From contig OZ316897.1 in the NCBI GenBank assembly GCA_973895155.1, forward strand, positions 23,411,455 through 23,475,454: a stretch of 64,000 bases of DNA, written 5' to 3'. Below the pieces are notes generated by a model that was not told the DNA's origin, made no database searches, and saw only the letters and a list, made by a program, of their open reading frames with translations. This document shows positions 17,001 through 64,000 of this stretch, piece by piece (positions within the stretch are counted from its first letter, which is position 1; each line of letters starts with the position of its first letter). The position numbers and the translations under genes are program-made. Source of the DNA: Marsupella aquatica (taxonomy: Eukaryota; Plantae; Marchantiophyta).

Positions 17001-17603
17001 TGTCGTGCGCATACACATCGCTACACAACATACATTGCTTGTCACATACATCCAAACATAGTCACACTGCCACATCACAAACACAAGAGAATGGAATACA
17101 AGTGGAACTCATGTCCACACATGTCCAAAACCCACAATAATCTCCATACAATCGGCACAATGATCCCGGTCAACAATACCCCATCGATCCCGCACCGATC
17201 CGATCACACACGTATGTCAAGCCAACGCACCTTGCACTACTCAAGGAATCCACGTTACACAAGCGGAGCTCACAGCCACCATAGCCACTCAAGCTCCTCT
17301 CTCTCCAAGGCTCAACATTGAAAGATGACCTTTCAATGCCTCACAAGTGAGAAGTACCCTCTCACACAAACCTGACGGAACCTTATCGGCTCATATAGCA
17401 CACATACCAAATATACGGATCTAGATAGTACGATACACTCTAACACTACCTAGAATGGCGTGACAGCTATCGTGCGCATACACATCGCTACACAACATAC
17501 ATCGCTTGTCACATACATCCAAACATAGTCACACTGCCACATCACAAACACAAGAGAATGGAATACAAGTGGAACTCATGTCCACACATGTCCAAAACCC
17601 ACA
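17001..17603 (-). repeat. 3' terminal repeat region of C with internal 138-bp direct repeat (17001-17138 and 17468-17605)
   Basis: The duplication is directly visible. A PPT-like TAGGGGGGCGAT lies on the minus strand at 17604-17615. TG..CA ends are present. Confidence 0.7.
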
Positions 17604-17778
17604 ATCGCCCCCCTAGCTGGGAGTAAGGTCCCCTAACTCTAGCTAGCCATGAGTTCTACAAGGTTGATATACACCTTTTTAGGTGTGAAGATCAGGAGGC
17701 CGGGTGCAAGTGAGCCCCATCGATCACCTACCTGCAATCCATATCTGCCAAGAGAACACAAATGATAACTAGTCGGCT

Positions 17779-19359
17779 TCACCGACACTGAGGACACAAC
17801 CATGATCCACTAGGAATCACCTGCAATGGTGGTGTCAAACATGACATATGCCATCCTCTAGAACACTTATCACAAATCAACATAGTAGCTGCTCCCTGAG
17901 CAGATCCACACAACATACATTTCAAGCTAGCACGAACATGTGCCAAGCTTGGATCTACTGTACCATCAATGTTGGGAAGGTGACATGGTGCACAGTTGCG
18001 CACATGATCCTTCCAAACCATACCATCGCGTCCCTCCAACATCAGGACACCAGAAGGCAACACTTCACGCACACGAAAGATTGTCCGGCCTACGGTCACA
18101 TCAAGTGTTGTGGGTGCTGTCTGCTGCAAATAAACATAATCACCAGGATGAAATCGTCGAATGCTTGCACGGTAACCTCCTCCACGAATAGTGGCATACC
18201 TCAAAGTATCATGATGTTGGGCAATGGCAAAGTTATCAAAAGCCACGGGCATCACTCTCTGAAATACCCGTGCTCTCTCTGAACACACCTTGACCCAAAC
18301 ATCAGGATCATCCAAGTTCACAACTGGTATAGCATCACGACGAATAGCTGCTGGCAAATCTGGCTCTCTACCATAGAGCAAAAAGTAAGGTGAGAAGGAT
18401 GCAAGTGATGCTTGCCGACTGAAACGGTAGCCCATAGCTAACCAAGGTAGCTGGAGATCCCAATCTCCCAGATGACCAACCTGCAAGCCATACTTACGCA
18501 ATCCTCTCTTCACAGTTTGCACAACTCTCTCAGCTATTCCATCTGCCTCAGAATGATCACAAGAGGTAGTACGATGATCAATCAAAGCTTGTTCACACAA
18601 ACTCTCAAACTCTCCATGGAACTCAGTTCCCTGATCAGTCAACACCTCAGCTGGTGCTCCAAAATGACTAAGTACGCGATCCAAAAATGTAGCAGCAACT
18701 CCTCCACTGGCTTTATCTGGCAACGCCACTAGCTCAATCCACTTGGAGAAGTGCTCCACCATGACCAAAACATACCGATTATGGCGTTGGGTAAGAGGTA
18801 ATGGACCAGCAAAATCCAAACTCCAACGATATCCCAAACCCATGATCGGTAACGGGTGCAACTGGGGAGTGGGAGCATTAAATGATGCTCTCACTCTATC
18901 GCATACCACACACTTAGCTATCAACTGCTGGACATGAGTATGCATATCACGCCACCAATATTGTGTCTGCAGCAAGCTATAAGTGCGCTTCACACCAAAG
19001 TGACCCAACTCCTCGTGTGCATGTCGCACCAAATGTACTCGTTGTGATGGTTTTGGTACCACCAACACCCTACCATCATGCAATACTCTCAAAAGATGGT
19101 TTCCCTCCCATCGAAACCTCTTGGCTCTTTGTAGAACCCTGTCACGTTCTTTGGCATCAACACTACCAACAATAGAACCACTGCACAGATATTCCAACAC
19201 TCTCACATCATTGTGAATATCTTGCTGTCCAGAAGTTACCTCACCAACATCCACATCTGAAGACTCATCATCCACTCCATCCAATGAGGTAGAGTCCACA
19301 GATCCACTGTATGCTGGCACCCAACAAAGAAAGGCAGATGCATGCCATCCTGGCACCAT
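17779..19359 (-). CDS. Integrase of element C with C-terminal PHD finger
   Basis: HHCC (HAHEELGH..CVVC), DDE core (SLDFAG, LTDQGTEF, AERVV) and C4HC3 finger CMLC..CDKCSRGWHMSC..WLCPQC (17782-17922). Confidence 0.9.
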   Translation of the reverse strand: MVPGWHASAFLCWVPAYSGSVDSTSLDGVDDESSDVDVGEVTSGQQDIHNDVRVLEYLCSGSIVGSVDAKERDRVLQRAKRFRWEGNHLLRVLHDGRVLVVPKPSQRVHLVRHAHEELGHFGVKRTYSLLQTQYWWRDMHTHVQQLIAKCVVCDRVRASFNAPTPQLHPLPIMGLGYRWSLDFAGPLPLTQRHNRYVLVMVEHFSKWIELVALPDKASGGVAATFLDRVLSHFGAPAEVLTDQGTEFHGEFESLCEQALIDHRTTSCDHSEADGIAERVVQTVKRGLRKYGLQVGHLGDWDLQLPWLAMGYRFSRQASLASFSPYFLLYGREPDLPAAIRRDAIPVVNLDDPDVWVKVCSERARVFQRVMPVAFDNFAIAQHHDTLRYATIRGGGYRASIRRFHPGDYVYLQQTAPTTLDVTVGRTIFRVREVLPSGVLMLEGRDGMVWKDHVRNCAPCHLPNIDGTVDPSLAHVRASLKCMLCGSAQGAATMLICDKCSRGWHMSCLTPPLQVIPSGSWLCPQCR

Positions 19360-19401
19360 CTCCTTATCTGACTCATCATGCCATCTGGCTCCAATCTCAT
19401 C

Positions 19402-19747
19402 CTACTGACTGGTACATGGATTGCGGCTTAATCCATCTGCATCCAAGTTCACTTTTCCAAGCCTATGCACCACCTGGAAATCATACTCCTGTAACAACAA
19501 TGCCCATCGTGCAAGCTTCCCTATAAGCTTGTCAGACTCCATTAACCACTTAAGAGGCTGATGATCAGTGATCAAGGTGAAGGGGTTACCAAACAAGTAG
19601 CAACAAAAGTGTGCAACAGCCCACACTGCTGCCAAACACTCTCCCTCATAAGAGCTATACTTAGCCTCTGCTGAATTGTTTGATCTACTGGCATAAGCCA
19701 CAACAAACTCATTCCCCTTATCATCCTTCTGAATCAACATTGCTCCA
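19402..19747 (-). pseudogene. RNase H (C-terminal part) of element C
   Basis: VAYASRS, YEGECLAAVWAV, LITDHQPL, NLDADGLSR. Confidence 0.88.
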
Positions 19748-33810: not shown

Positions 33811-33982
33811 CTCCAAGTCCTACTCCACTCCAATCAGTGTGTAGCTGAAATGGTTTGCCTGAAATGGGTCTTCTCAAAATAGGGGATGATGCCAACCTTT
33901 GCTTCAACTCCTGAAAGGCATGCTCCTGGTCATCACCCCAAATCCATTCCTGATCCAACTTAGTGAGTATGGTCAAAGGTTT
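33811..33982 (-). pseudogene. RT connection / RNase H start of element C between insertions B and D1
   Basis: LTKLDQEWIWGDDQEHAFQELKQRLASSPIL..PFQLHTDWS. Confidence 0.88.
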
Positions 33983-35372: not shown

Positions 35373-35378
35373 TCTTTT

Positions 35379-42000: not shown

Positions 42001-43646
42001 GGGCCGCATACATCTGCGTTCAGGTGTTCCAGGAAGTTCGGGATGGCATAGATTGTCTTCTGTATTTGTGGGCGTGTAATCAGCTTCCCCTGAGAGCACG
42101 CCAGGCATTGCCTTTGTTTTGTTGATGGGTTGACTCCTTGGGGGATTCCACGGGAGTCATGAATAATTCTGCGGTACATGTTTACTCCGGGGTGTCCCAG
42201 TCGACAGTGCCATAAGTATGTGATATCAGGTAAGTCTGCAGTGACATAGTGAGCTTGAATTTGAGTTGCGTAGAGGCCTGGTGGTATAAGGGGTAAGGTT
42301 TCTTTAATATGTATACCTTGTTCGGTAACCTCCACGATTTGGAGGGTATCTTCCTCGTCTGTTTTCACTGTGCGCAGTTGATATTTATTTGCGACTATGT
42401 CTCGGAAGCTGATGAGGTTCCTTGTAGCTCGCGGGGCGAATATCGCTGCTTCGATGGCGAGTGCAGTGCCTCCTGGGAATATTACCGTGGCTGTGCCTTT
42501 ACCCTCCTCAATCTGGTTTGTGCCTGAAATGGTGGTCATATGCCGGGCTGATGGGGTAATTGAGTGGAAATATTTCTTGTCCTTTAGTATTGTATGAGAC
42601 GTACCGCTGTCAATTATGCCCAGATTGGGGTCTTGTAGTGTGTAGGGTCCTCTTGCTGGAGTTACTATGTGGGTCTCCACTTCATGAGGTTGTTCGGGGT
42701 CTTTGTAGGTGGCTATTGCTTCTTCTAGCTCCATGTAGTTCCCTGCTGGGTTTTGTTTGAGTCTAGCTCTTGATTCTGTATGTTTCCTGGCTATTTGGTC
42801 CGATGCCCAACAATTTTTCTTCAGGTGTCCTATTTTTCCGCATCGGTAGCACATCCTGTCATCTTTGGTGTTGTCCGATGCATTATCACTCATCCTGCCT
42901 CTGCCGCCTACTCCCCTGCCTCTTGTGTTGTATGATTGTCGATATCCTCGACCTCTGTAGGATTGGTTTCTACCTCTGCCTTGGTATCCGCCTCTGCCTC
43001 TTGGTCGGCCTCGTCCCATGTTATCTCGCTGATAGTAATTTATCTCTGGTTTGTGTGGTGGTGGTTCTGTTCCCGCAGGTCTTTTTCGGGCGTTTTGCAT
43101 GGCGACCACCTGTTGCTTCTCTTCTACAAGTAAATGTGCGATAAGATCTGAATATGTGGTGAATTGCATATTTCGGTACTGTGTACCGAGTGCAATGTTT
43201 GATTCGGGGAATGTACTCAGTGTCTTGTCGATCTTATCTGCGTCTGGGACTGGATGGCCGCAGAGTTCTAGTTGAGAGGTAATTTTAAATAGAGCGCTGT
43301 TGTAGTTAGCAATGGAAGTATGATCCATCACTCGTAGGTTGTACCAATCGCGGCGAGCCTCAGGAAGCCATATTTCGCGCATATGGTCGAATCGGGCCTT
43401 TAACTTGTCCCACAGGAGTCGTGGATTGACTTCGTTCATGTATTGGGATTTTAGTGAGGGAACCAAGTGCTGGCGCAAAAGGAACACGGCCTTGGCCTTC
43501 TGTTGTAGAGTCAGATTTTGGTCTGTGATTAATGTATCTTCAAGCTCCAACGATGCGAAGTATGTTTCCGCATCTACGGCCCATGTCAAGTAGTTGCTGC
43601 CGTCTACTAGTAGGGCTGGGAAATGTAACTTCTCCAATGTTGCCAT
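39033..43646 (-). CDS. Copia gag-PR-INT-RT-RH polyprotein with a single in-frame TGA at 40047-40049
   Basis: CYRCGKIGH, IDSGTSHT, WHCRLGHPG, DVCGP, YRARLVAKG, YVDD, GYADAGY. The 1199-aa and 329-aa ORFs are in the same frame. Confidence 0.92.
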
Positions 43647-44193
43647 GTCTATTTCGCCTGATTTTGGGCCTTATAAATATATGGTGTTCCTTTGTATCAA
43701 ATGCCTATGACTTTCGCCTTGTCCCGCCCGATCGATCGGCTGTTGTGATGGATCAAGTTAACCAAAAGAAAGAGAAACGATAGCGATCCTTTCGCTCAAG
43801 GCACGGGACTCATCTGCCCCTTGAATCGCATCCAAATTGTCCCCGATGGAGTTCGTTCGTATGTCCTTGTGTGCGGTCCTCAAAGTTTTCAGTTTTCGCC
43901 AATGTCTTTTATTTTGTTTTTCGCGTCTCGTCGCGTTGTCTCCTTCGTTCAAGGTTGAGAATCTTCGCTCGTGATTAGGCTCGACGCTCTATGGCCAGTT
44001 CTTTGTTCTTCGATCATAAGCTTGTTTTCTCTATTCTCGGGAGGTAGTTAGGCGGTTATTCTCGCCATTAGAGCAAAAAACACACAACATTGTGTTGTTT
44101 TCTTTGTGTGGACCTCGATCTATTGAGTTGTCAGATTTTGGGGAGGGAGCACATGTAAAAAAAAATGTAATTGAGCAAGTCGCGCTGATAACG

Positions 44194-44340
44194 TGTTATG
44201 AATACACAAGATGATAGTAGTCAATAATCCCCACTCACTTCCATTATGCCAAGGACTTATATAGTCCAGAAGGGTTAACATGGTTGGGTTAATGTTAACC
44301 TATCCTATACTAGGGTTAAGTCATATTATGGGTTATAACA
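44194..44340 (-). repeat. 5' LTR of Copia E
   Basis: TG...CA, with PBS adjacent. Confidence 0.95.
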
Positions 44341-44345
44341 AGATT

Positions 44346-45442
44346 CACTTTTTCATCAACCAGTATCCGGGGTGGTGCCTGATGTCTTGGTAAGTCATTT
44401 AGTGAAACCTGAAGTAGTTGGTATGCCGAATGATCGAGTTCAGAATCGGGATAAAGTTCTGACTAATATTTACGCAACTACTCGTTCGAAGAAAAAGGAG
44501 ACCAAGAAGCACGAGCATCAGAAGGTCGCGAAAGCTCCCAAGGATGAAGGGCGCAAGCCATGTAAGGAAGGCCTCGACAAAGAAGACGACCCTGCTTATG
44601 ACCGATATGACCCAAAATACTTCTTGCCCGACATCTCTTTGGAAGTGAAAGACCATCTGGAAGAGCTAGTTAAGGAGCAAGTGCAATCTCCTAACCCACC
44701 AGTAGTAGTCAAAGCTAAAGAGCCACTGAAAAATCCAGGTTATGATATTGTTGAAGATGTCAAGAATCATCCTGCACATATCACCATTGGGGAATTATTA
44801 CAGGACAATCCGGTTTATAGGCGACAGCTGAGGAGCCTCCTTGCAGGAAAACGGAGGAAGAAGAAGTTACCTTCTGTGGATGTGCTACGAACAGAGTGGG
44901 AGGACAAAGGACCGATGGAAATTGAGGTTCAAATCCAGGGGTGTGTCATTCGGAGAGTTCCTGTGGATGGAGGAGCCAGCGTTAATCTGATTACACAGTC
45001 AGCAGCATTTAATTTGGGTTTCACTAAGTTTGAGCCCACTCCCAAGATTTTGCGCATGGCGGATCAGTCTCGTGTGGTACCCATAGGGAAGCTGACCAAA
45101 GTAGAAACTTTGATTGCTGGTGTCCCTTTTCTGTTGGATTATGTGGTTATTAATCCGGAAATACCATCCAGCTTTCCTGTTTTGTTAGGCCGACCATGGT
45201 TGTATAAGGCTCAAGTTCAGGTTAATTGGCAATCTCAAGAGCTTTCATTTGGGAAGCCTAAGGTGACTGTTAGTTGGGTTCCGGAACCACATTTTGGAGA
45301 AACACAAACAGATGATGGGTACACCTCGGATTTTTCGACCTCTTCGCTAGTCCTGCAGCCATTGGAATTTGAACTGGAGGAAGTTCGTTACTTGGAAGTT
45401 TATCTGTCTGATGCTCCCATAAAACCAACTAGGCCCTCCTGA
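44346..45442 (+). CDS. gag C-terminus plus aspartic protease of D1
   Basis: VPVDGGASVNL and VLLGRPWL motifs; ends at TGA-CAATTA in frame with RT. Confidence 0.9.
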
Positions 45443-48415: not shown

Positions 48416-48437
48416 AATTCCACCTGGGACAGGTTGC

Positions 48438-48453
48438 AATTTAAGTGGAGGGC
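48438..48453 (+). other. Internal second PPT copy of D1
   Basis: AATTTAAGTGGAGGGC, identical to 51921-51936. Confidence 0.75.
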
Positions 48454-48798
48454 GGTAGTTATACTTAGTTAGAATTAGTGACCCTCCCTAGTAAGTATTC
48501 GGCATATTTTTTTAATTTTTTTTAGTTACTTTCAGTTTTTACATTGGACGCTGTGAAAAGCGTCCATTGTAACTCGACGCTGGGGAAGCGTCCACTTAGT
48601 TTACAAAGGACGTTGTGCAGAGGTCCGCTTTTGTATTAGTTCAGTTGCATGAGACGCTGTGAGCCGATGACTAGGCATCTTGTACAATGGCGGATTGCGA
48701 CAGCTCAACGGGACGCTGAGGAGTAAGCAGTCGCGCTTCGCCCTAGTTCACTATGGAACACGATTCTCACTGAGCTTACGGAGCTAACAAGTCACGCG

Positions 48799-51372
48799 AT
48801 GGCGGAGACTGAGCTGACGACGCGACCAATACTCGCAGACATTCCATCGAATGCAGTGCATAGGCGGCAGTTGAAGACGGCTCTGGCAAAAATGGGCTTG
48901 AAGAAGCTGCTTCAACTTCCTTGGAAGATTTGCGAATTCAGCCTTATCGATCAAGGTGTCTGGGACGCTGAAGAAAGGATTGGTGTGCGCTCGCGTCCCA
49001 GTGTTTGGACTGAAGCGCTCATAGCGAAGGTCTATTCGACGCCGATGGAGGGCGAGGATTTACAGAGGGTTGATTGTGAGCCTCGGGTTTATGTAGAATC
49101 CTTCTTCGCTCCAGGATCCTTCAAGAGGCGGAATGGATGGCTAGCGGCGGACTGCTTAGATAATTCTCTGCAGCGTCTATTTCGATTTCTGGCACCAATT
49201 TTCTACCCAGAAAGCCAGACGCGCATCACTCTTTCGTTCGCTGCAACGGTGATCTGTTCATTAGAACAGACGCAGTCTATCAATTGGACGAAGGTTTTGC
49301 ACCGAGTAATTCATACTCAGGTCAAAAATTTTCGTAGCAGGCTGAAAACGGGGAAAATAAGGTGTACCTACTTGGCCCCTTATTTAGCTCACATTTACCA
49401 TAAGTATGACTGTCTGCTTGTCTTGGAAAAAGATTTTTATCGCAACAATCAGAGAGCATCTACCGGTGAAGCAAATTATATGCCTGAAGTACGAGAAGTC
49501 CGAGCCAATTCCACAGTGGTAGAGCTATGTGCAATACTCGACTGTGAGGAACCTGAACTGGTGGGTGAAGTTCGGAAATTGAAAGAGACAAGAGCATCAG
49601 CTGAAGGGAGTGACGATCCGATTCTTCACCAACCAAGAGAGGCTCAAGTTGCCGAAGATGTTCCTTCAGCAATGCCCACAGGGTTGGAGCATTCTATGTC
49701 ACCTCGACTCTCGTGTTCACCTTGTGCTGCCGAGCCTATTTATGATGTTGATCAGGATAATTCTGCTTCTCGGATGAATGTTGAAGATGAGGTGAGGGTG
49801 GATGAAGAAGGTTTTTCAGGGGAACCTCTTCAACATTCTACTGCTGAGGACGAGTATGATGGATTTACTTCTACCCCTGTTTTGGTTCCCATAGAGGCAA
49901 ATAGTGATGCTTTGCAGGCTTTACAGGAGTATGATTCGTCCGACTCTCTTAGTTCTAGCCCAAATATAGGTGAAATCCCTCTGGTCCAGGAGTCAGAAAT
50001 ATTAAGCTCAGAAATTGTGAAGCTGGTTAAAGTTGATTCGGAGGATGCAATTGTGGATATAGACGAAGTAGGTGAACCAGTGACTTCTCCCCAATCTGTC
50101 GCAAGATACCCTGCCTGGTCTACACCTGGTTCACTCATATCGATTCCTTTGGATATAACTAAGGAATTAGATGAGGCAATAGCCGCGATAGGAGCTCCTT
50201 CATTTCCGCCTGTAAAATGGGTTTCTCCTGAAGATGAGTTGATTGAAGGAGGCTCTGCTGGTTTTCCGAGTCGCAATCAGGTATCTGGTAATATGGGTAT
50301 ATCTGTACCCATATTGGTACCCGAGACACCCGCTTCGACAACCAGCTCAGCACCAGTTTCATTGGCTACAAACGAGGATAAAAACATTCGGGAGGAGTTT
50401 TCAGTGACGTATACTCGAAAATCTTGGAAACGGTTGCGCCATGCTATCAGTCGACAGATCTTTCCTGAAGCATCTTCCCAGGATTTTGAACAGGGAGAAG
50501 CACCTATCGGAACAGACGAGCTACCCCTTCCTGTACTTTTGACAGATCGAACTAACCAGGAAGTCTCTTTACCTAGCGATAATTTTAAAGAAGAACTTCC
50601 TGTTTTAGTACCAATGCATCCCATTGCAGATCAACCAGCTACTGTTGCAAGAGAAGAATTTGAACCACTGGAGCCCGAACCTTCTGCTCCTTCGTCTCCT
50701 GTTACATTGCCAATTCGACCAGTTAAGGAGTCAGTGATTCCTTCCGCTATGCCAGATGTAATTTTCCGTTGGATAGGAGCACCAAGTGATGGAGAAGAAG
50801 ACGAAGACCCTCGCATTATCAGAGTACCTCCTCGACTTCGGCATACAGTGGATTTGCCACCCCGAAATCCTATCCCTAATTTGGCTTCAATTCACAGGTG
50901 GGAGAAGAAACATTTTCGAGTAGCTTTTCGACATCTGGAGATGGAGAGCATTTTGCAGCAGCAGCAGATTTTGCCAATGACATCCCATCCGAGGATTCGT
51001 AGTTTGATTCGCACATATGAACCTGGGAAGGCGGTTCCTCCCATTGATAAGGACAGACGACATAAGTTTTCGGAGTTCGAAATTTGGTGTTGGGTGTATA
51101 TGCTTCGACGAGCTCAAGCTCCATTTCCGCCCCTTGTGCCGGAAATTCCATGGCCCTATCCATACTATGTTTGGGTTTGTCCTGGTGGGTTTGCTATTCC
51201 AATTAAATATGAGAAGAAGCTTGTTAAGCTAAGGGAGCAGTTGATTACAAAACAATGTATGCTACCGGCTTCCCAAGGGTTCAAGTCGCTTAGGTGTTTA
51301 GCGTTCCTACCTATTATTCCTTCTTATCCGGATGTGATTATTCAAGGTGTTTTATCTAGGACACAGATTTGA
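48799..51372 (+). CDS. Extra ORF of D1 at the env-like position (857 aa): accessory N-terminal domain plus acidic/Pro-rich region
   Basis: Intact ORF. GLKKLLQLPW..WTEALIAKVY..P..NGW...C resembles the A/B LTR proteins. Confidence 0.8.
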   Translation: MAETELTTRPILADIPSNAVHRRQLKTALAKMGLKKLLQLPWKICEFSLIDQGVWDAEERIGVRSRPSVWTEALIAKVYSTPMEGEDLQRVDCEPRVYVESFFAPGSFKRRNGWLAADCLDNSLQRLFRFLAPIFYPESQTRITLSFAATVICSLEQTQSINWTKVLHRVIHTQVKNFRSRLKTGKIRCTYLAPYLAHIYHKYDCLLVLEKDFYRNNQRASTGEANYMPEVREVRANSTVVELCAILDCEEPELVGEVRKLKETRASAEGSDDPILHQPREAQVAEDVPSAMPTGLEHSMSPRLSCSPCAAEPIYDVDQDNSASRMNVEDEVRVDEEGFSGEPLQHSTAEDEYDGFTSTPVLVPIEANSDALQALQEYDSSDSLSSSPNIGEIPLVQESEILSSEIVKLVKVDSEDAIVDIDEVGEPVTSPQSVARYPAWSTPGSLISIPLDITKELDEAIAAIGAPSFPPVKWVSPEDELIEGGSAGFPSRNQVSGNMGISVPILVPETPASTTSSAPVSLATNEDKNIREEFSVTYTRKSWKRLRHAISRQIFPEASSQDFEQGEAPIGTDELPLPVLLTDRTNQEVSLPSDNFKEELPVLVPMHPIADQPATVAREEFEPLEPEPSAPSSPVTLPIRPVKESVIPSAMPDVIFRWIGAPSDGEEDEDPRIIRVPPRLRHTVDLPPRNPIPNLASIHRWEKKHFRVAFRHLEMESILQQQQILPMTSHPRIRSLIRTYEPGKAVPPIDKDRRHKFSEFEIWCWVYMLRRAQAPFPPLVPEIPWPYPYYVWVCPGGFAIPIKYEKKLVKLREQLITKQCMLPASQGFKSLRCLAFLPIIPSYPDVIIQGVLSRTQI

Positions 51373-51384
51373 AGGACACCATTT

Positions 51385-51861
51385 ATGAGAGATATCAAAC
51401 GGTGTTGTCATTTATATGTATATAAGCCGTTACTTTTGCAGCATCCTGCAATTGTTTCCTTCTTTCTCCTTCGAATTGATATTTATCTGCTCATGTGGGA
51501 CATCAAAGCTACTATGGATTGTTGGAATTCTTTACCCCGTGCTTTCCAACATTCCTTTGAAGGCAAGATCAAACTGGGAGGACATGCTATTCAACACTTT
51601 GTTATTGATCCAGGCTCTCGAATTAATTTCCTCTCCCACAGACTGTGCCAGCAATTTGTTCATCAAGAAGTACAACCGATATCTGCTCAGATATCAATCG
51701 ATGGACGAATCATTAATCTTTGGGGAAGAGTTAAAGGAGTCCCAATACAGATCGGAGAAGAATTCCATGACCTCGATTTTTATATTCTGGATTCGGATAT
51801 CTCCCAACTCCCGTCAATAATTTTGAGCACTACTTGGATTATTAAGCCAGAATATTATTAA
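51385..51861 (+). CDS. Second retropepsin-like aspartic protease domain, in frame with the extra ORF after one TGA
   Basis: FVIDPGSRINFLS...GRVKGVPIQIG...DFYILD...IILSTTWI. Confidence 0.7.
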   Translation: MRDIKRCCHLYVYKPLLLQHPAIVSFFLLRIDIYLLMWDIKATMDCWNSLPRAFQHSFEGKIKLGGHAIQHFVIDPGSRINFLSHRLCQQFVHQEVQPISAQISIDGRIINLWGRVKGVPIQIGEEFHDLDFYILDSDISQLPSIILSTTWIIKPEYY

Positions 51862-51938
51862 TGAAGAACATGTCACTCGCTTCTGATTCAATTCGGTCAT
51901 GTCTTGTGGGGACACGGCGAAATTTAAGTGGAGGGCTA

Positions 51939-53328
51939 TGTGGTATGGGTGTCCCTGCAATTTTTTCTGGAAACTTGTTTATTTTTAGCATATCACAAGA
52001 TTTACTTACACTTTAGACACCTTCCGGCCAACATTTACTTGTTCTGGACACTTATAGAAATATTTGACATCTCCGGCTTTCCTGACGATTCCTAGTGTAC
52101 TTTGCCCGACGCTGTGACCAGCGCCCGTTTCTTTTACTCAAGACGCTGCGGAAGCATCCAAACTCCTCATGACGCTTTTGGCAGTGCCCGACCGCCACCA
52201 AGACTCTATGAGGATTTCGACCGACGCTGTGGAAAGCGTCAGCTTCAACACACGACGCTGTGAGCAGCGTCCACCCTAGTATTGACGCTGTGAGCAGTGT
52301 GAGCAGCGTCCGTTGGTTTTACTTAAGACGCTTCTAGCAGCGTCCAGATTCTCCCGACGCTTCTAGCAGCGTCCGCTCAACACTTAGTTTTTGAAGTAGA
52401 TTACTAGTAAAGTAGTATTCTACCACCCTTGTTGAAGTACTTATGCTGTGCTTCTCCCTTGTTTAGTTTTAAGCTTGGAAAGGCACGACTGTTCTTACCT
52501 CCTCCATTTTAGGATTCCAGCACTTATAAGACAGAGTAGAATGCTCATTTGAAGTAGAGAGAAATAGAGTTAATACTGTATTCAGAATTGAGTCTTCTGA
52601 ATAGTTTTCTCCTCCTTCCATTGTAACAAGGCATGCTGTGAGTGTTTTGTATGGAAGTAAAGCTATATTGATTGAAGTTAAGATTGAATTCAAGAGATTC
52701 CTGTGGTGATTGAATTCAGTTGCAGATTTCTGAAACTCGTATTGAATTCACTGCTAGGCTTGCTTGCAGAGTCGGGATTCGCTAGCCAATTCAAGAATAG
52801 TTAATGATAAATGAGAAGTAAATTCTGATTCTCAGAGTAGTTAGTACTGTTGCTTTGATTCTGGAATATGGTTTAGAGTTTGACTGAATTGCGTATCGCT
52901 GATGTCAAACCATGTTGACGGCATTTTAAATCATATCATTCATTTGCAATCAGAAAGCTTATGCTTCATCAGATTGAGAATTCCATTATCATTAACCTTT
53001 GTGTTTTGAAGAGTGAGATGGATGAATTATGAGATAGATTTCATGTCTATACTGAGCCCAAATCCTTTCTGAAGGAGTGGCAGTAGCAGCTTGTAGTCTC
53101 TAAATCCTTACTCATTTCTTCTCTAATTCATAAATCAGAAGTTCAGTTACTTTGTTGTTTGTTTATTCGATTTTTTTATTGAGAAGTGAAGTCAACATAG
53201 AGCTCAAGACTCTAAATCATTCGGAGTGATAAAAGTTATACAATTCATTCTGAAATCTGTTCTTAAAGGGATCGAAACCCTGGTTTTAGGTGAGGAGAGT
53301 CACTTTTGATACTTAGCACTATACGACA
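51939..53328 (+). repeat. 3' LTR of D1 (1390 bp)
   Basis: Preceded by PPT at 51921-51938 and followed by TSD GGTTT. Confidence 0.95.
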
Positions 53329-54404
53329 GGTTTAGCAAGCTGGCTAAATCCTTTAACATACCTCCTGTAGTAGCTCGCCAATCCCAAGAATGCACGAACT
53401 CTACTCACATTAGCAGGACAAGGAATCTGTGTAATGGCCTCCACTTTAGTCTGCTGTACACCCAATCCCCCTGGGTATATAGTGTGGCCCAAATACTCAA
53501 TCTGGTCTTGGAAGAACTTACACTTGCTAGGATGGAGCTTCAACCCATGTGCTCTCAATCTCTCCAACACAATCTGCAAGTGCTGCTGATGTTCTTCCAC
53601 AGTAGAAGAATAGACCAAAATATCATCAATATAACATCTGATAAAATCCAAACCTGCAAGGATTCGATCCATGACTCTCTAGAACTCAGCTGGTGCATTC
53701 TTCAACCCAAATGGTAAGAATAACCACTGATACAAACAATCTTTGCCATAAGAATCAATCCCCCAGAATGCTGTCTTGGACTTGTCAGCATGCCTAATTG
53801 GAAGTTGATGGTACCCTGCCCTCAGATCCAATGAACTGAAAACCTTTGCATGCCCCACAGCATCAAAGATCTCCTCAGGTGTGGGCATGGCATATCTATT
53901 AGATTTTGTCTGGCAATTAATGGGTCTGTAATCACCGCACATGCGCCTATCTATGTAATTGCCATGCACATCCTTCTTGGCTGGCATCACTGTGGCAGAT
54001 GCATACTCCCCATATGAAATCTCCACCAATCCAGCCTCCAACAAATCTTGAGTTCTGTTTTGAATCAGAGCTCTCTCCATGTCACTATAACGGTATGGCC
54101 TACGAAAGATTGGCGCATCACGAGCCAATTTAATCTGAATACCAGGACCCTTTAATGTCCCCAAATCTTTCATGCTAAATGCAAAACAATTCCAGTAACT
54201 CTTCAGGAATCGACGCATGCGACGTCTCTCCTCCCCTGTCAACTTAGGGCCAAGCTGTGGTTCCCAACTCTCCACCAAATCCCTAGCTAATATCTCTTTG
54301 TAGGGTAGAAGAGATAGCCGATGATTGCTATTTAGCAGTAGATTGAGTAGTCCCTTCCTGCTCAACAATCTGTCCAGCCTTGGCCAATCCTGCCATAGGT
54401 CCAT
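53329..54404 (-). pseudogene. Reverse transcriptase of element C (one TAG at 53679)
   Basis: RMCGDYRPIN, LDLRAGYHQ, LPFGLKNAPAEF, CYIDDILV, FLGLASYYRRYV. Confidence 0.93.
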
Positions 54405-54879
54405 GGACTGTCTGCTCGCCCCCAGCTGTGGTCAGTACTGTCTCAGTGGACCGCAAGCTCACCAAGCGACAATCAGTAATTCTAGCAAAGCGCATCCGCA
54501 ACTGTTCAGCTACTCCCAAGCTGATAATCCAAGTCAAACAATTCAGGTCCATTGCTTGACCAAGAACCTGGCGTCGCAAACTCTCTGACATAGAGGCAAC
54601 TACAGTGGTGCCAGTCAAAAATCCCATAGCACGCTCTCTCTCATCAGCAGTAGGTTCCACTAATTGCTGGAGAACTGTGTTCCACACAAGTCCAGGGCCA
54701 CCTGCTCTAAATGCATATGAAGCAGAGTGGCTTACAAGAGTGGGTAATGCACAACGGGGGCACCCAACTACATTGACCATTGCTAATGGAGGTCTATCAG
54801 GTTGGGTCACACCCTATGCACGACGCCCTGGATCCAAAACATCATCCACCACTAAGGCTGGTGAGCGTGGAATGCTGTC
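54405..54879 (-). pseudogene. C5-cytosine DNA methyltransferase (DNMT3-like), target-recognition region and motifs IX-X, of element C
   Basis: ERERAMGFLTGTTVVASMSESLRRQVLGQAMDLNCL aligns without gaps to DNMT3A [36 protein letters not shown] (recalled sequence). Confidence 0.8.
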
Positions 54880-57800
54880 TGTGGTGCGCCCCATGGCTCC
54901 CCAAACCCAAGAAACCCCCCCCCCCCGCACAAGCCGATTCCCGCGGGTTTCATCCTCGGCGAGGCCGTTTTCGCGGCTTAGCGGCATGGGACGCTGCTAA
55001 CCTCCTTCTACTACTACTATTAACATTTTACACACATATACTGGACAGATCCTTCATCGGGTCATGAGATATGTAGCCGGCCTAATCTGGGCCTTCCCTT
55101 CTCTTCCTCTCCTTCTGGTTGGGTATATTTGGATTCCGCCGCCGGAATGATCCCCAATAGGCTTGGTTAAGCCGCTAAGACCTCTCTCAGCTCGACACAT
55201 CCAACTCTCACTCCCTTGCTTACTTTCCTTCATCTATTAGTTGATGTGGGCACTCTTCACACAAGTTAATGCGACACACAAATAGCAAAATGACTCCTTC
55301 TGACTGAGTCATACCATGCACTTGCCATACAAACGGTACATCTCATACACAAGCTCTGCGAACTAAGCCGTGAGGCCAACTCTATTCAGCTCTTAGGCAT
55401 GAGGAAACATGAATATACACAAGGGTCACTATATGACTAACCGAGAGCTTCTCTTACTACTTGATCCCAACCCGGCTGGTGCAACTAAAAACTTGCTAAA
55501 GAAGAGGCCCTGAGCTCCCCGCTGCCCAGGTACTTATCCTGGACGCGGATCCGCCTAATTCCTTGCAGCGTAAGCCAAATCTACCTAACTGAATCTACCT
55601 AACTACAGCGAGGCAGGAGTACAAGTGTTGCTCTTACCAGTGGAACCACAATCCCACTAAGCCAAGTGTCAGGGCCGCCTCCTGGTCCTGATCCTAATCC
55701 TAAACTTAGAGATCCGAGCCCGCCCTGCCCACTCACGCCTCCTCCCTCCACGTCCGCCCTCCTTGAAAGGAGCGGCCCTCCACCACCGTCATGGCAACGG
55801 TGTCTGTTCCTTAGTGGACGCCCCCAACGCTTCCTCCTCAGCCACTATCGTAGGTTCGTTCTCTGACAAATTACCTCCCTTGACTTAGTCAACTCTCCAT
55901 CGGCCTGACTGGGTCCACCTTCGGCTTCGGCCTCGGCACCGGCTTCGGCATCAGCCACGGCTTCGGCCTGAGCTTCGGCTTCGTCATCCCCTGCTTCTAG
56001 GGTAGTTGGATCCTCTGCCGTGACCTTGCCTGGGGTCGGTGCTGGGTCTGCCTCCTGGGTCACCACGGCCTATGGAGCCGTATTACTCCTTGACCCTCAA
56101 GGTTTCCACTTCTTCTTCTTTTCTGGTTCGGCAGCTGGTCCCTTCCCCTTCCCACTTACTTCCGGCACTGGTGCAAGTGGCGCGGCTTGTTCTTCGGCCA
56201 GTACCACTCCTGGTAACTTGGTTGCCCCAATTGGAGTTGGGCCTGATGGAGCCAAGCCTTTAATTACTGCGGCTTGTTTCTTTAGCCGCTCCGTTTGGTT
56301 GTCGGCTCGCCGTTGTAAGTTCTCCAGCTTCCGCGTGCTTTCCTCCAACTCCTCCTGCACTTCATCCAGGTCCTTGCGCGCCTCCTCCAGTTCTTTCTGG
56401 GCTTCCTCCAGCTCCCTGTGGGCTTCCTCCAATTCCTTCTTCAAGGTAGCCCTCTCCTCATGGGTTGCTCTTAGCTCTTTGTCGAGCTCCATTACGACCT
56501 CAGACTCCATTTTATTCATCTTGGCATAAGTCTGGTCGAGCTGGTCGTCCTTCTCCTGTAGGTCGGCCTTGAAGCTGGCCGTCAGGGACGCAAGTTCCTA
56601 CTGCAGTGCAATAATCCCTTGATAGGATTTCCCTAACTCAGCCTCCTTCTGCTTAAGGGCTCCACGGATAACCTCGAGCTCCCCCTTCAACGCCCTTTCC
56701 CTTCTCTGGGTCTCCGCCATGGCCCGGTTGTTGGCTGTTATGTGGGCCTCCTCTGCATTCCTCAGCTCTCGCTTCCACTTCTCCCGCTCCTTGATCGCAT
56801 CGGCCAACTCTCCTTGGGTCCGCGTGAGTAGATTCTCGATCATCCGATTATCATACTGTGCGGTATTCAACTGGCCCTGCATGATATTTAGCTCATGCCG
56901 CTTAATCCGCAGCTCATCTTGGGCTTTCTTGGCCGCCCTTAGGTCCTTGATTTCGGCTTCCCTTTCCCTAAGCCGACGGATGACCTCGTCCTTCTTGCTT
57001 CTTTCCAAGGCCACCGCTTCTTCTAAATGGCGCTTCTCCAACATCTCCCTCTGGAAAAAGGGTCCCTGCTCCAACTCCTCCCCAAAGATGCTGAGCGCTA
57101 GTTCTCCACACATCTCCCCGTACTCCATGGCTCTATTTTTAGCATAGGTGGAGGAAGTAGAAGTCACCGGCATCATCCACCGCGGCCTTTGTTCCCAAGC
57201 CGCCTTGCGGATCTCCTCTATCGTGGCCGGAGGGCTGCTTCATTTTTCTGCAAGCCGCCTGATGTTCTCTGGCCATTCTCCTCCTGGTAAATCCTTCTCC
57301 CTAGCCAGGGCTGCCTCCTCTTCCTCCCTCATTTGCTCCTGAAATTCCTGCGCCGTCTGTTTTATGCCGTCAAAGCTTGGGGGAGCGACATCTGGCGGGG
57401 GAGACTCGGGGCTGCTCTGCTGGCTCGGGTCCCCTCGGACTACTCTTGGGAGTGTGGGGATAAACCGGCCACATGTCCTTACTCCTGGAACATGATGATC
57501 CAACCCGTAGCCGAAGTTATCATTGCTGTAGTCCTCCACCGCCTCCTCCTCGGTTTGGACTACCGGCTTCTCCCGCTGTTCTCCTGATTTTGTTGTGAAC
57601 ACGGCTTCACCTCTTGCCAGTCTTGGTTCCTCCTCCGGCTTCCGTGTTGATCTCTTGTTCTCCTTGTCGGGGCCGGGAGCTACGGCCTGCTTCTCTTCGG
57701 CTTCGGGACTAGAGGCTCCTACATACATCCGGACTCCCGGCTCGTGTTCCGGCCTCCTTCTCTCCTTGACTCCAGTAAAGGGGTTTTCCCTTGTAAGCCG

Positions 57801-59599
57801 GTCTAGGCCTACCTCTAGAGCAGTGTCCTGTATTGTTGCCGTTGCCGTTGCCGTTGTTGTTGTTGTTGCCGTAGCCGTAGCCGTTCTCTTTTCTTTCTCC
57901 AGCAGTTTCAACAGATTCTGCATGCCTGGTTGCTGCATCGGCAAGTCCTCCGTCCTTGGCCTAAACACCTGCTCAATTGTAGGATTGTCGGGCGGTTTAG
58001 GTTTCTCCGTTGTCGGCCTCTGTTCCGGAACCTCCTCTGGTGCCCTTGCCTGTAGGGGAAGCACCGGGCCAAAGGTCTTACTTCGGGCATACCGGCACAA
58101 TAGCGGCATGTGATAGCCCAGCCGGGACACGCTTCCCTTGCCGATCACCAGCTGTTCCTCCTTCAAGATCTTCTTTAGTTGAGTGAGGAGATAACCGTTG
58201 TAGTCCCGGCTTGGGTCTGGCCTCTCTGCCAGATAGACCTGTGCCTTGCCGATCTCTGCTCTCGGCCAGTTGCAATGCATGGTCACCCGCAAGAAATCGA
58301 TCATCTCTCCTATATGGGGGTTGGTGCAAGTGTTACGGAAAAAACCATTCTTTGTTGAAGGCCTTGGAAACGACCTGAACTCCGTGTCTGGCAAGGTCTT
58401 CCTGGTATCTACCTTGGTCTTATTGCCCATCGGCAAGCCAAATCCTTCGGCAATCACCTGGGGAGTAAGATAGAATTCCTTCCCATACACCCTTGTGGAA
58501 TTGGTCTCAGACTCCCATGATCCCACGAATTCAAGTAAGTCTGAATTTGGCACCTCCGGCTTCAGCCATGGTAACCTTACGAAGGCTTCCAAGCCGGATC
58601 CGGCCATGAAGCCCTGATATTTCTGAGTCTGCATAGCCGTAAAGCATGCATCCTCTTCTCTTGCAAAGTGTAATTGGACCTCCTCGGGGAGGATTGCCAC
58701 CCAGTCTTTCCAGGTGTCATCTCTCGTTGGAATGGCGTTGATGGGGTCGACCTCCTCCTCCTCGGCTTCTCTCTGCCTCCTGCTCTGCTGTTCGGCTGGT
58801 TTCTTTGGTGCCGCCGACCTCGTTCTTTTTGCCGGGGTGGCCTCGTCGTTGTTAATTCCCTTCCTCTTCATCTCGGCTGCCGTGGATGTCTCTCCGAGCA
58901 CGGTTGCCTTTGTCCACCCCTCCGTGCTACCCTTCAACTCCCAGTGTAGGTCGTTGCAGCATTTGATGGCTTTGCGGATGCCGACGACTCTGTCTTCGCA
59001 AAACAAAAGGTCGTCGAGTTGATTGGTAGTAGGAGTCCACAAGAATTCGGCCTTGATGAGTTCTCCTCCTAAGAAGGCAGCTTTCTATAGCTCCCACAAT
59101 TGAGCGAGCTCCTATCGTTCTCGAGCTGCTCTCTCCGATTCTTCGTCCTCGTAAGTCCCAATGTACTCAGTTGCCCGTTCGAACAGGCATCCCCAAAAAT
59201 GTGCCGCTTGATTGATGTTGCTCATACCCTTATCGAGTTGATAGTCGGTATCTGCTCCCCCCCGAGTGCTTGCTTAAGCAGCTGATAGTAGTTGGCCGCC
59301 CGTAGTCGTCTGCCCAGTTCGTGCCTGCAAATGAGCCACAACTCTTCGCGAGCGGTCCTTACCCCTCTCCTCCTCGGCGTTTCTCTCCCGTTGGTGACCC
59401 CTAGCCGCCGGCATTTATCGTGCCCTAACCCTAATCGTGTTCTCTCCCCTGGCATCCTTACTTCCGGCCTCGGCTCGGGTTCCATAGTCACCCTTAATTG
59501 TTTATATTTTCTTATTTCTGTAACTATACTAAGGTGTTTCTAGGGTACACTTCCCATTTCCACTTCAACTAGCCGAGTGATTCCTGGCTAGGCATCACA
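54880..59599 (-). repeat. 3' LTR of A3 (4720 bp)
   Basis: TGTGATGCC...GCACCACA on the minus strand, with PPT adjacent. Confidence 0.9.
55789..59485 (-). pseudogene. Disrupted LTR-embedded coiled-coil protein gene of A3
   Basis: ORF pieces 57240-59042, 56598-57176 and 56097-56519 are homologous to 2232-5831. Confidence 0.85.
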
Positions 59600-60311
59600 T
59601 AGCTCCCCACTTAATTGTGAAGCGTCCTCGCGAACAACTTCATCTTCGTCCATATAGTATTTCTTGAGGCGGTCGTAGTGAATACGAACTGGGTACACTT
59701 CTCCGGTAATGTTGGCCAATTGCACAGAGCCATTGGGGAACTTCTTTGATACCCTGAAAGGTCCTAGCCAGCGAGTGTAAAGCTTCCCTGGAAACCTACT
59801 ATACCTACTGTCATAAAGTAATACAAGATCTCCTGTGTGAATACTAACTACTTTCAACTTTTTATCATACTGCTGCTTCATGATATTCTGTCTATATTCT
59901 ACTCTCTCGGCTGAAATCATTCTTGCCTCCTCTAAAGCCTCTAATCTATATTCTCGCTCTTTCAGGCTTTCCTCCTCTGAGACCCTTTCCTCAATGGTAA
60001 CTTGAAATGTTGGTATCTCAAGTTGCATGGGTACCAGAGCTTCTTGTTCAAAGGTTAAGAAAAAAGGTGTATGACCGGTAGTGGATTTATAGGCTAAATT
60101 GTAAGCAAAAACAGCAGCAAACAATTTATCATCCCAATCGAGTTTGTTCTGAGCTACTGTCTTGTTCAATATCTTTCCTATAATTCCATTGGCTCGTTCT
60201 GTCAATCCATTTGCTTTTGGGTGGTAAGGAGTGGTAGGCCTATGTTTAACTAAATACTGCTCATTTAACCAACTAATTATATCATTCAAAAAATGGGTTC
60301 CTCTATCACTA
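59588..60311 (-). pseudogene. Integrase C-terminal fragment of A3
   Basis: SDRGTHF...WLGPF...ELCDA; the N-terminal MKWKWE is LTR-derived. Confidence 0.9.
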
Positions 60312-60362
60312 ACTTCCCATTTCCACTTCAACTAGCCGAGTGATTCCTGGCTAGGCATCACA

Positions 60363-60529
60363 CTGTCAAATGCACGCTTCAGCATGCACCTCACATGGGA
60401 TCAAATTAGTCCACCACAAGCGTGGACGATGTGCACGAGAACTCACACGTGCAGCATCCAATAACACAGTAGGTCCAATCCAAGACCTCACCTGGTGAAC
60501 ACTACTGGCAACAATCCGACTACGATCAT
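60363..60529 (-). pseudogene. DNMT3-like methyltransferase motifs VII-VIII of element C
   Basis: PTVLLDAARVSSRAHRPRLWWTNL versus DNMT3A [22 protein letters not shown] (recalled sequence). Confidence 0.8.
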
Positions 60530-61979
60530 TGTGGTATGGGTGTCCCTGCAATTTTTTCTGGAAACTTGTTTATTTTTAGCATATCACAAGATTTACTTAC
60601 ACTTTAGACACCTTCCGGCCAACATTTACTTGTTCTGGACACTTATAGAAATATTTGACATCTCCGGCTTTCTTGACGATTCCTAGTGTACTTTGCCCGA
60701 CGCTGTGACCAGCGCCCGTTTCTTTTACTCAAGACGCTGCGGAAGCGTCCAACCTCCTCATGACGCTTTTGGCAGTGCCCGACCGCCACCAAGACTCTAT
60801 GAGGATTTCGACCGACGCTGTGGAAAGCGTCAGCTTCAACACACGACGCTGTGAGCAGCGTCCACCCTAGTATCGACGCTGTGAGCAGCGTCCACCCTAG
60901 TATTGACGCTGTGAGCAGCGTCCACCCTAGTATTGACGATGTGAGCAGTGTGAGCAGCGTCCGTTGGTTTTACTTAAGACGCTTCTAGCAGCGTCCAGAT
61001 TCTCCCGACGCTTCTAGCAGCGTCCGCTCAACACTTAGTTTTTGAAGTAGATTACTAGTAAAGTAGTATTCTACCACCCTTGTTGAAGTACTTATGCTGT
61101 GCTTCTCCCTTGTTTAGTTTTAAGCTTGGAAAGGCACGACTGTTCTTACCTCCTCCATTTTAGGATTCCAGCACTTATAAGACAGAGTAGAATGCTCATT
61201 TGAAGTAGAGAGAAATAGAGTTAATACTGTATTCAGAATTGAGTCTTCTGAATAGTTTTCTCCTCCTTCCATTGTAACAAGGCATGCTGTGAGTGTTTTG
61301 TATGGAAGTAAAGCTATATTGATTGAAGTTAAGATTGAATTCAAGAGATTCCTGTGGTGATTGAATTCAGTTGCAGATTTCTGAAACTCGTATTGAATTC
61401 ACTGCTAGGCTTGCTTGCAGAGTCGGGATTCGCTAGCCAATTCAAGAATAGTTAATGATAAATGAGAAGTAAATTCTGATTCTCAGAGTAGTTAGTACTG
61501 TTGCTTTGATTCTGGAATATGGTTTAGAGTTTGACTGAATTGCGTATCGCTGATGTCAAACCATGTTGACGGCATTTTAAATCATATCATTCATTTGCAA
61601 TCAGAAAGCTTCTGTTTCATCAGATTGAGAATTCCATTATCATTAACCTTTGTGTTTTGAAGAGTGAGATGGATGAATTATGAGATAGATTTCATGTCTA
61701 TACTGAGCCCAAATCCTTTCTGAAGGAGTGGCAGTAGCAGCTTGTAGTCTCTAAATCCTTACTCATTTCTTCTCTAATTCATAAATCAGAAGTTCAGTTA
61801 CTTTGTTGTTTGTTTATTCGATTTTTTTATTGAGAAGTGAAGTCAACATAGAGCTCAAGACTCTAAATCACTCAGAGTGATAAAAGTTATACAATTCATT
61901 CTGAAATCTGTTCTTAAAGGGATCGAAACCCTGGTTTTAGGTGAGGAGAGTCACTTTTGATACTTAGCACTATACGACA
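60530..61979 (+). repeat. 5' LTR of D2 (1450 bp, two extra 30-bp units relative to D1)
   Basis: The unit GACGCTGTGAGCAGCGTCCACCCTAGTAT(C/T) is expanded. Confidence 0.93.
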
Positions 61980-61985
61980 TCTTTT

Positions 61986-62003
61986 TGGCGCCGCTGCCGG
62001 GGA
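61986..62003 (+). other. PBS of D2, tRNA-Asp type
   Basis: TGGCGCCGCTGCCGGGGA. Confidence 0.85.
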
Positions 62004-63197
62004 ACGAATTTAAGATTGAATTGACGTACAGGCAGTGTATGCCAGAAGGAGCTAGACGGGAGAGGAATTCACGTTCTACTATAATTGTGAAGATGCGTCA
62101 TCACTCCAGTTAAAAAGATGAAGAGCTTCCATTTCGAGGTGATGCCGTACTCTATCCAAAGCGCCCCGGAAGCTCTCTTAAGAGTATTGGAAAAATTTGT
62201 GGTGCCAAACTTAAGAGAAGAAACCGCCCTCCCACCAGAAAAGGCCTCACAGAGAGGAGCTGTTGCTCGTCAAGTTGCTTTGGAGATAGTCGAAGACACC
62301 AAAGACACTTTGAGTGACAAGTGAAGTTATTCTAACGTTGCTCGGGACGTATGATTTGTAAAATTGTCCAACCATCCTGGTTCGTGTGACCGATGCCACC
62401 TATCCGATCTTTGGGAACATTAAGAATTAGGAATTTGAGGAATCGTTATGTTAATTCTTGGGTTCTGAGCCTGAGAGGGAGGAATGGCATACATTGGTTA
62501 ACTATCACCTGGTGGGAAGATGAAAGTTTGCATTTAGTAATATTAAGGCTGAATGGTAGGATCACACAGGAGTGATATTTAGTCATTTCCATTCGGGAGT
62601 TAGCGGAAAGAATCATGCACCAGGAATTGCGTAGAAGATTAGGAAGGAGTTAGACGTCTGATTAGTAGGATGGCCTAGTGTAGCGTACCATGTGGTAAAG
62701 AAATTTCAGGGTGAAGGAAGTCGGAGATTATGGGGAACGCCCGGTTCCAGTAATCGCCACCGTAAAGGAGATAAGGAAGGACGCCGCGAAGAGCGTCCAA
62801 TGCGATTCGTCCCAGAAGATTCCGCAAGTCAGGACGCTTCGAGTAGCGTCCGATCCCAGTGGACGCTGTGAGCAGCGTCCGGTGGAATCTGTGACGAACC
62901 AACGTGCGCGACGCTTCTGGTGTGCCTTTCCGCGTCTCAACCTGAAGGACGCACCAGAGAAAACGAGGTTTTAGAATCTCGGCTGGTCACTAAAGGGAAG
63001 TATTAGCTACGGGATAGCAAGGGGGAGGAATCATGCAAGGGATGTTGAACGACGCTACGGGAAGTCACTTTGAGGAAGCAGGGTCATATCTCCCGGAGTG
63101 GGGTGATAACGTCGCACCTAAATGGTGACTCCTTGCATAAAGACTCCTGAGGAGCGGGTCTGGTGTCTCAAAATCACCCGTGCTTGGAGAATGAGGG

Positions 63198-64000
63198 ATG
63201 TCTGAGGGAGATCCACCGAATAAAAGAAAACCTACCAAGACCTCCAGTAATTCGGATGCTGCAAAATTAGTAGTGACCCCTCGCACATTGTTACCCGAAT
63301 TCCAGTCACCAGGAGCACCTGCACCGGGTAGTGTGTGGAAACAAGTGGGATCTATTCAAGAGGCAAGTGGCTCTTTGGAAAGGCCCACGTCGACCCGACC
63401 CCTGTTTGTAAATCTTCGTTCAGGTCCAAAACTTATTGGTTCTCAAAAGACCAAGCTCCGCCAGCAGACAGTACGTTCGGTGAACCAAATTGACTCTGGT
63501 GTGGATAGTACCACTGAGAGGGCCTTATCTCATACCGAAGGAAGAAATTTGGGTTTGCCCGAGAATACAGTTGCAGAATCGCTGGCCCAAGATAATTCTG
63601 TCGATCTTTCACAATTGGATAATCCAGAACCACTGAGTGAAGCCGGTGGTTCGTCTTCTAGTGAGACAAGCAGCAGTTCAGGCTTGGGCAGCCCAAACCC
63701 ATTTGCTACCCGATCAGCTCTTCCTTTCGTTACCCTCCTAGCTCCAACCACGATGGCTCGAAATAATGTGAGGTACGACCGGTTCTTCGGTACTTCCAAG
63801 GAGGATGCAGAGGTGTATTTGAAAGAATTTGAAGCTGCAGCTGCATCCAATGGACAGAGTCAAGACGCTGAAAAAGCCAATCTGTTTGGTGGTCTAATGA
63901 AAAAGGGTGCTCAGAAATGGTATGACCGTTTTCCGGACAAGCAGGATTGGGGGAAATTGAAGGCTGCTTTCTTGGCCAAATATAAAGAAGAAGGAGCAGC
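63198..64000 (+). CDS. gag: gag of D2 (partial, open at window end)
   Basis: Same sequence as the D1 gag starting at 36591 (MSEGDPPNKRK...). Confidence 0.9.
   Translation, partial: MSEGDPPNKRKPTKTSSNSDAAKLVVTPRTLLPEFQSPGAPAPGSVWKQVGSIQEASGSLERPTSTRPLFVNLRSGPKLIGSQKTKLRQQTVRSVNQIDSGVDSTTERALSHTEGRNLGLPENTVAESLAQDNSVDLSQLDNPEPLSEAGGSSSSETSSSSGLGSPNPFATRSALPFVTLLAPTTMARNNVRYDRFFGTSKEDAEVYLKEFEAAAASNGQSQDAEKANLFGGLMKKGAQKWYDRFPDKQDWGKLKAAFLAKYKEEGA

Follow-up and report, generated by a model that had tools for sequence, protein, structure and literature searches.

A Gypsy retrotransposon lineage with a DNMT3-type methyltransferase domain, traced from a decayed copy in the liverwort Marsupella aquatica

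The stretch analysed here, 64,000 nucleotides of Marsupella aquatica contig OZ316897.1 (hereafter the window, with positions counted from its first letter), holds element C. This decayed member of a multi-copy Gypsy (Ty3) retrotransposon family is spread across the nested insertions A3, D1 and E. On the minus strand its domains follow one another as a DNMT3-like methyltransferase (DNMT), reverse transcriptase (RT), RNase H, integrase and a PHD finger (Table 1). Judged from the sequences of its relatives, the first of these is almost certainly a genuine element-encoded DNMT3-type enzyme. The analysis further suggests three novelties, namely a land-plant range for such elements, a DNMT that closes the first open reading frame (ORF1) ahead of a stop that is probably leaky, and an internal att-att junction hinting at integration from a circle.

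In this copy the DNMT survives as two pieces. A model that had seen only the letters (the sequence-only reading) had proposed that removal of A3 joins 60363-60529 to 54405-54879, and this holds: the insert (54880-60362) has TG...CA ends and a target-site duplication (TSD), CTGTC, at 54875-54879 and 60363-60367. Contigs of sequencing run X1 bridge the site, connecting 54879 to 60387, so the join without A3 is present in other copies. The peptides quoted in that reading are found on the minus strand, in separate pieces that align to consecutive parts of one natural relative, P0001: identity is 83% with residues 494-538 and 76% with residues 544-564, and a 161-residue piece is 76% identical over 99% of its length. 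Motifs VIII, IX and X stand in non-permuted order, unlike those of DRM, an order checked in P0001 against DNMT3A, and a profile of relatives scores piece 2 at E 4e-59 and piece 1 at E 4e-18. The damage noted earlier is also real. The in-domain frameshift near 60382 is confirmed by runs X1 and X2, most of whose depth shows a short indel relative to this copy, and the in-domain TAG at 54814-54816 stands where P0001 is open. A second frameshift, near 54283 before RT, is read as decay of this copy because the listed spanning contigs of four runs differ there.

Two facts weigh against the identification if the window is taken by itself. Its DNMT pieces match neither PF00145 (Pfam) nor any PDB entry, so the profile search that the sequence-only reading had proposed found nothing in them, and the catalytic motifs of this copy lie outside the window. 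The missing match is explained by the position of motifs I-VI past D2, an element whose long terminal repeat (LTR; 60530-61979), with a plus-strand primer site and gag next to it, cuts off the domain; D2 extends beyond the window, and therefore Gag, protease and motifs I-VI of element C cannot be read here. The surviving pieces are without the region that PF00145 detects in relatives. Identification for this reason rests on close relatives, which carry PF00145 with intact catalytic motifs and are 55-83% identical to the window pieces.

A search at E<=1e-3 returned 75 protein relatives, 19 of them named (Marchantia 14, Sphagnum 2, Calypogeia 2, Riccia 1), and in a larger library the relatives made up 587 clusters. 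PF00145 exceeded its cut-off in 16 of the 20 relatives scanned, downstream of a zinc knuckle and an aspartic protease where these score, and no PWWP or ADD domain was seen in those scanned. Motifs I, IV (PC) and VI (ENV), expected by the sequence-only reading beyond D2, are present in relatives and fall past the window edge for this copy; the exact WPCQ occurs in 52 of the 55 matches that span motif IV and ERAMGF in 69 of the 75 relatives. Against the PDB, a profile of 50 relatives ranked DNMT3A (1e-26) over DRM2 (1e-11) and HhaI (1e-7), with DNMT2 also below DNMT3A. A predicted model of the unbroken domain of locus L001 (mean confidence, pLDDT, 93.5) has DNMT3A as its top fold at a template-modelling (TM) score of 0.72, and its best matches are DNMT3A/B/C. 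By profile and predicted-fold ranking, then, the domain is nearest to DNMT3, ahead of DRM, DNMT2 and bacterial enzymes, at about 22% identity to the catalytic domains of mammalian DNMT3A/3B; these are its best sequence and fold match and share the motif order I-X, and they differ in that the relatives' domain sits in a polyprotein, without PWWP or ADD in those scanned. The ratio of nonsynonymous to synonymous substitution rates (dN/dS) is 0.07-0.14 in five pairs of the L053 group (a sixth is saturated), by which measure the domain is under purifying selection there; the value for the window against L003 is 0.09, with dS near saturation.

The linkage to the retrotransposon recurs as well, since 62 of the 81 related loci have an RT no more than 1.5 kb after the DNMT. 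A locus scan with P0001 alone gave 55 pattern matches and none confirmed, that of viral contigs 0 of 22, and that of prokaryote genomes one of 363, probably a contig of plant or algal origin that was binned with cyanobacteria. L081, P0044 and P0330 are filed in bacterial bins (cyanobacteria, Minisyncoccia); they are probable eukaryotic contamination and could be mistaken for bacterial methyltransferases. The weakest alternative, an accidental juxtaposition or a host DNMT3 fragment captured once within a repeat nest, has in its favour the missing direct Pfam or PDB match, and is refuted by the same order in those 62 loci, the many Marchantia copies, the intronless DNMT and the congruent DNMT and integrase trees.

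Relatives occur in Marchantia, Calypogeia, Riccia and Sphagnum assemblies, with more distant ones in chlorophytes, and several of the full-length Gag-protease-DNMT genes of Marchantia are annotated only as hypothetical proteins. The nearest named integrases are those of Calypogeia (81-85% identity) and Riccia (81%). In both trees, rooted by midpoint only and with no host DNMT3 among the sequences, the window falls together with liverwort and Sphagnum-type sequences (support 100/99 for DNMT; 98/97 for integrase, there including the L053 group), which bears out the land-plant-type lineage that had been guessed from neighbouring elements. In chlorophyte relatives, which form a separate branch, the DNMT lies between RNase H and integrase; judged from this order and the tree, the domain has moved within the lineage. 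Chlorophyte Gypsy-DNMT-PHD elements include P0262, P0268, P0269, P0286 and P0290 (Hariotina, Enallax, Tetradesmus), two of them from transcriptomes, and among other relatives P0139 has protease, DNMT and RT in one open frame. Two integrase-PHD proteins of Klebsormidium nitens share 51% and 47% identity with the window integrase; their place within the plant group is weakly supported (85/53), and they may not come from DNMT-bearing copies.

The DNMT is likely the tail of a Gag-protease ORF, with Pol made by readthrough of the stop that closes it, as the sequences around that stop indicate. DNMT and RT share a frame in 43 of the 62 loci with RT within 1.5 kb. Exactly one stop separates them in 27 loci, and CAR is the next codon in all 27. 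In the window this stop fits UAG-CAR-YYA, the context that, according to the accessible text of PMC2754532, constitutes the readthrough signal of tobacco mosaic virus (TMV); known here from sequence, it is shared at the ORF1 end by the window and four distant loci with TAG CAR TYA, which are the only four of the 27 to have the full CAR-YYA. In L053, L057 and L081 the stop-CAR-TYA is followed by 1047 open codons up to the PHD finger. Among long relatives, 28 of 32 stop 35-163 residues beyond motif X without RT, and the remaining four, which run into RT, are annotated gene models. The placement of DNMT directly upstream of RT thus stands as to order (62 of 81 loci) and fails as to a shared open frame, the Gag-protease ORF being closed by the conserved stop at 54328-54330, which the sequence-only reading had overlooked. 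A programmed +1 frameshift before RT was also considered and dropped, given the differing run contigs at the site and the single in-frame stop of related loci.

Several points weigh against readthrough. The remaining 23 one-stop loci are copies of one Sphagnum-like family, with CAA CCC/CCT/CTC after the stop; they differ from the TMV type in keeping CAR only, without YYA, and the stop is TAG in 15 and TAA in eight. Because these are copies of one family, the 27 loci amount to about two lineages, and the lineages with stop-CAR number three with the window, not 27. The 19 of 62 loci that are out of frame are read as decay. Contigs of four runs show no listed difference at 54322-54330, but since the listing has only eight variable places over 201 bases, chance alone could account for this identity.

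The ends of the element are equally unusual. Instead of two complete TG...CA LTRs, the layout is A-coding-B-A-B, of which the window preserves the 3' part, B-A-B. It is complete in three of the 38 loci of at least 7.5 kb, namely L050 and L051, which look like one locus, and L061; all have 4-base target duplications, a 5' TG (altered in L061) and a 3' CA. Eight loci, which belong to two distant lineages, keep the junction CGACA-NN-TGTCA between B1 and A; the window has it with a single change. Just past the 5' repeat A, six of 11 loci carry a self-primer-like 10-16-base complement of a site within A, lying in two of the six 26-33 bases below a TATA box; the arrangement resembles that of self-priming elements (PMC6317226, in its accessible text). 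Split repeats with an internal att-att junction suggest, on their layout, a two-LTR circle opened inside an LTR. At L061:10825-10860 about 17 extra bases lie where the 3' repeat A meets the last repeat B, as is expected if that joint was made by end-joining of linear complementary DNA (cDNA). The REXdb survey required full TG...CA LTRs, and its accessible text mentions neither PHD nor Marchantia nor Klebsormidium (PMC6317226). Split repeats or circle junctions in the Gypsy-DNMT3 family were not found in a literature search whose scope left out subscription journals, Repbase and figures.

A third line of evidence comes from CpG depletion, counted across codon positions 3|1 with GpC as control. 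Element C has 8 CpG against 52.3 expected (0.15). The figures for A2, the older element that hosts it, are 29 against 62.8 (0.46; p 0.002), and those for the other neighbours taken together 322 against 482 (p 1e-7). In element C GpC is normal and CHG shows no depletion; TpG and CpA are in excess. This pattern fits extra CG methylation of the Gypsy-DNMT3 family, whichever enzyme lays the marks.

Taken together, the reading favoured here, with moderate confidence, is that the DNMT is made in bulk with Gag, that Pol arises by readthrough, and that the enzyme CG-methylates the element's own new DNA copies. With readthrough, each Pol chain would be accompanied by many Gag-protease-DNMT chains, from which the protease would release the DNMT inside the particle. 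The element RNA would prime itself and give an ordinary two-LTR cDNA, with LTR = B+A, which would be circularised and then cut open by integrase at the internal CA-NN-TG junction, producing A-coding-B-A-B. The DNMT would methylate CG sites of the cDNA before or at integration, so that new copies would arrive pre-marked, either silent or looking like CG-methylated DNA of the host, and would pay for this with a loss of CpG. A wider version is put forward only tentatively: an ancient green-plant Gypsy lineage, from chlorophytes to mosses and liverworts, with an active DNMT3 at capsid abundance, own-cDNA methylation and circular two-LTR integration through the internal att-att junction, which LTR finders would have overlooked because of the split repeats.

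Further observations count against the favoured reading. The CpG ratio is milder in relatives (0.35, 0.58 and 0.65, values without host controls), the single window is the only host control for the depletion, and the loss may stem from host methylation over the history of the family. Two Sphagnum-type copies have a dN/dS of 0.88, read as that of dead copies. The circle model is drawn from sequence layout alone, and the A|B joints are precise in four of six cases, slightly different in one and provided with extra bases in another. In yeast, no methylation was obtained with the isolated Klebsormidium enzyme, a result that its authors call inconclusive (PMC5890265, here and below as far as its text was accessible).

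Of the other explanations, one holds that the enzyme acts mainly on host chromatin, at the integration site or at loci in trans, through PHD guidance or nuclear release. An enzyme made at Gag level would be abundant, and the PHD finger (17782-17946) is closest to the fingers of CHD4, ATXR5, KMT2D, DPF3 and KDM5, and resembles histone-H3 readers. Several of these fingers read unmethylated H3K4, like the ADD domain of DNMT3. The CpG loss of element C exceeds that of A2 and of the elements inserted in C, which makes host chromatin an unlikely principal target. It is likewise improbable that the domain is non-catalytic, binding cDNA or serving as a decoy for host silencing factors, or depends on a host partner, with the CpG loss due to the host. 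The failure of the Klebsormidium domain in yeast and the variation of CpG loss between relatives would agree with this; human DNMT3B failed in the same assay (PMC5890265), and the catalytic PC, ENV and S-adenosylmethionine (SAM)-binding motifs are kept in liverworts, mosses and chlorophytes.

A rather slim chance is given to the same enzyme role with another origin of Pol, either re-initiation after the stop or an RNA that is separate or spliced. The Sphagnum-type loci have an ATG two codons past the stop, which permits re-initiation and so speaks against readthrough in that family, and the four annotated gene models span DNMT into RT. The first methionine past the stop lies at codon 13 in L057 and at codon 116, well into RT, in both L053 and L081; moreover, frame and CAR are kept across loci while the flanking peptide and the spacing (80, 97, 112 and 115 codons) vary, which argues for readthrough of the stop.

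The closest known system is KnitGypsy-Dnmt3 of K. nitens (PMC5890265, de Mendoza et al., 2018), so the kind itself, a Gypsy element with a DNMT3 domain, was already known. For land plants, where the sequence-only reading knew of no such element, a literature search that did not extend to subscription journals, Repbase or figures likewise turned up no description. In both systems the DNMT3-type domain lies in the coding region, is intronless and non-permuted, and goes with DIRS-like split repeats; purifying selection on the DNMT, a mark of this kind, is seen here in the L053 group. They differ in that the algal DNMT is stated to share one ORF with RT and RNase H, whereas here it closes the Gag-protease ORF before a conserved stop, and in their hosts, an alga against liverworts and mosses; the likeness is drawn from the integrase and the published description, not from DNMT sequence. 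SymbioDIRS-Dnmt3, whose enzyme methylates CG in yeast (PMC5890265), has a DNMT3-type domain and A-coding-B-A-B repeats as well, but is a dinoflagellate tyrosine-recombinase element, where the present lineage has a DDE integrase and 4-base target duplications. EpiLTRs/DAM-LTRs are also Gypsy-type, with a DNA methyltransferase and a chromatin reader, and are distinguished by a DNMT4-sister enzyme, an adenine methylase and a chromodomain; the accessible part of the preprint sets them apart from streptophyte Gypsy-DNMT3 (bioRxiv 10.64898/2026.05.21.726589). That text and the accessible part of PMC12344493 say "streptophytes", citing the 2018 work. On readthrough in the Gypsy-DNMT3 family, a literature search with subscription journals, Repbase and figures outside its scope found nothing.

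These results extend methyltransferase-carrying Gypsy retrotransposons from one alga to land plants, including the model liverwort Marchantia, and the question raised in 2018, what purpose a retrotransposon's own DNMT serves, becomes testable in a genetic system with methylation mutants. Bryophyte methylome studies may contain unnoticed de novo methyltransferase genes. The readthrough layout, if true, would tie the amount of enzyme to that of Gag; the arrangement of the repeats, for its part, suggests that a DDE integrase here takes an uncommon route into the genome.

Table 1. Parts of element C and the insertions that interrupt it, in minus-strand order (window positions)
Feature	Position	Strand	Remarks
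DNMT piece 1, just past motif VI through motif VIII (RAHRPR, WWTNL)	60363..60529	-	truncated 5' by D2
A3, internally deleted Gypsy element, foreign to element C	54880..60362	-	TSD CTGTC
DNMT piece 2: target-recognition region, motifs IX (ERAMGF) and X (GQAMD), C-terminal tail	54331..54879	-	premature TAG 54814-54816
Stop closing ORF1, TAG CAA TCA, fits UAG-CAR-YYA	54322..54330	-	stop codon 54328-54330
Reverse transcriptase	53329..54321	-	frameshift near 54283 (copy-specific), premature TAG 53679-53681, interrupted by D1
Element D1	33983-53328		TSD GGTTT; interrupts RT
RNase H, first part	33811..33977	-	interrupted by element E
Element E	19748-33810		TSD CTCCA; interrupts RNase H
RNase H remainder, integrase (H2C2, rve), C-terminal PHD finger	17779..19747	-	premature TAG 19402-19404, before integrase
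Purine-rich tract, polypurine-tract-like (putative), adjoining repeat B1	17608..17617	-	kept in relatives
Repeat B1	17468..17605	-	135/136 bases equal to B2
Internal att-att-like junction: B end, two-base spacer, TGTCA start of A	17460..17474	-
Repeat A, 327 bases	17139..17465	-	assigned by analogy with L050 and L061; expected 5' partner outside window
Repeat B2, terminal GACA = 3' end of element C	17001..17138	-	flank = gag-protease region of A2

The domain order is that of Gypsy elements, RT, RNase H and integrase being read in the window and Gag and protease lying upstream in relatives. Element C ends at 17001 within the gag-protease region of A2, and with four insertions in it and itself inside A2 it belongs to a nest with young members (33983-53328, 60530-64000). 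The LTRs of D1 differ at one of 1390 bases, and D1 holds a Copia element (38548-44340) with identical 147-base LTRs as well as an extra 881-codon ORF without Pfam match. Of its 5' LTR, A3 retains only some 50 bases, fused to the integrase end. Family A LTRs are apparently about 4.7 kb long (54880-59598, 2178-5831) and contain a long ORF without Pfam family, of 1217 codons in copy A1. The 4-kb LTRs of element E (19748-23745, 29807-33810) are 98.9% alike and likewise contain an ORF without Pfam match, broken in the 5' LTR and 796 codons long in the 3' LTR.

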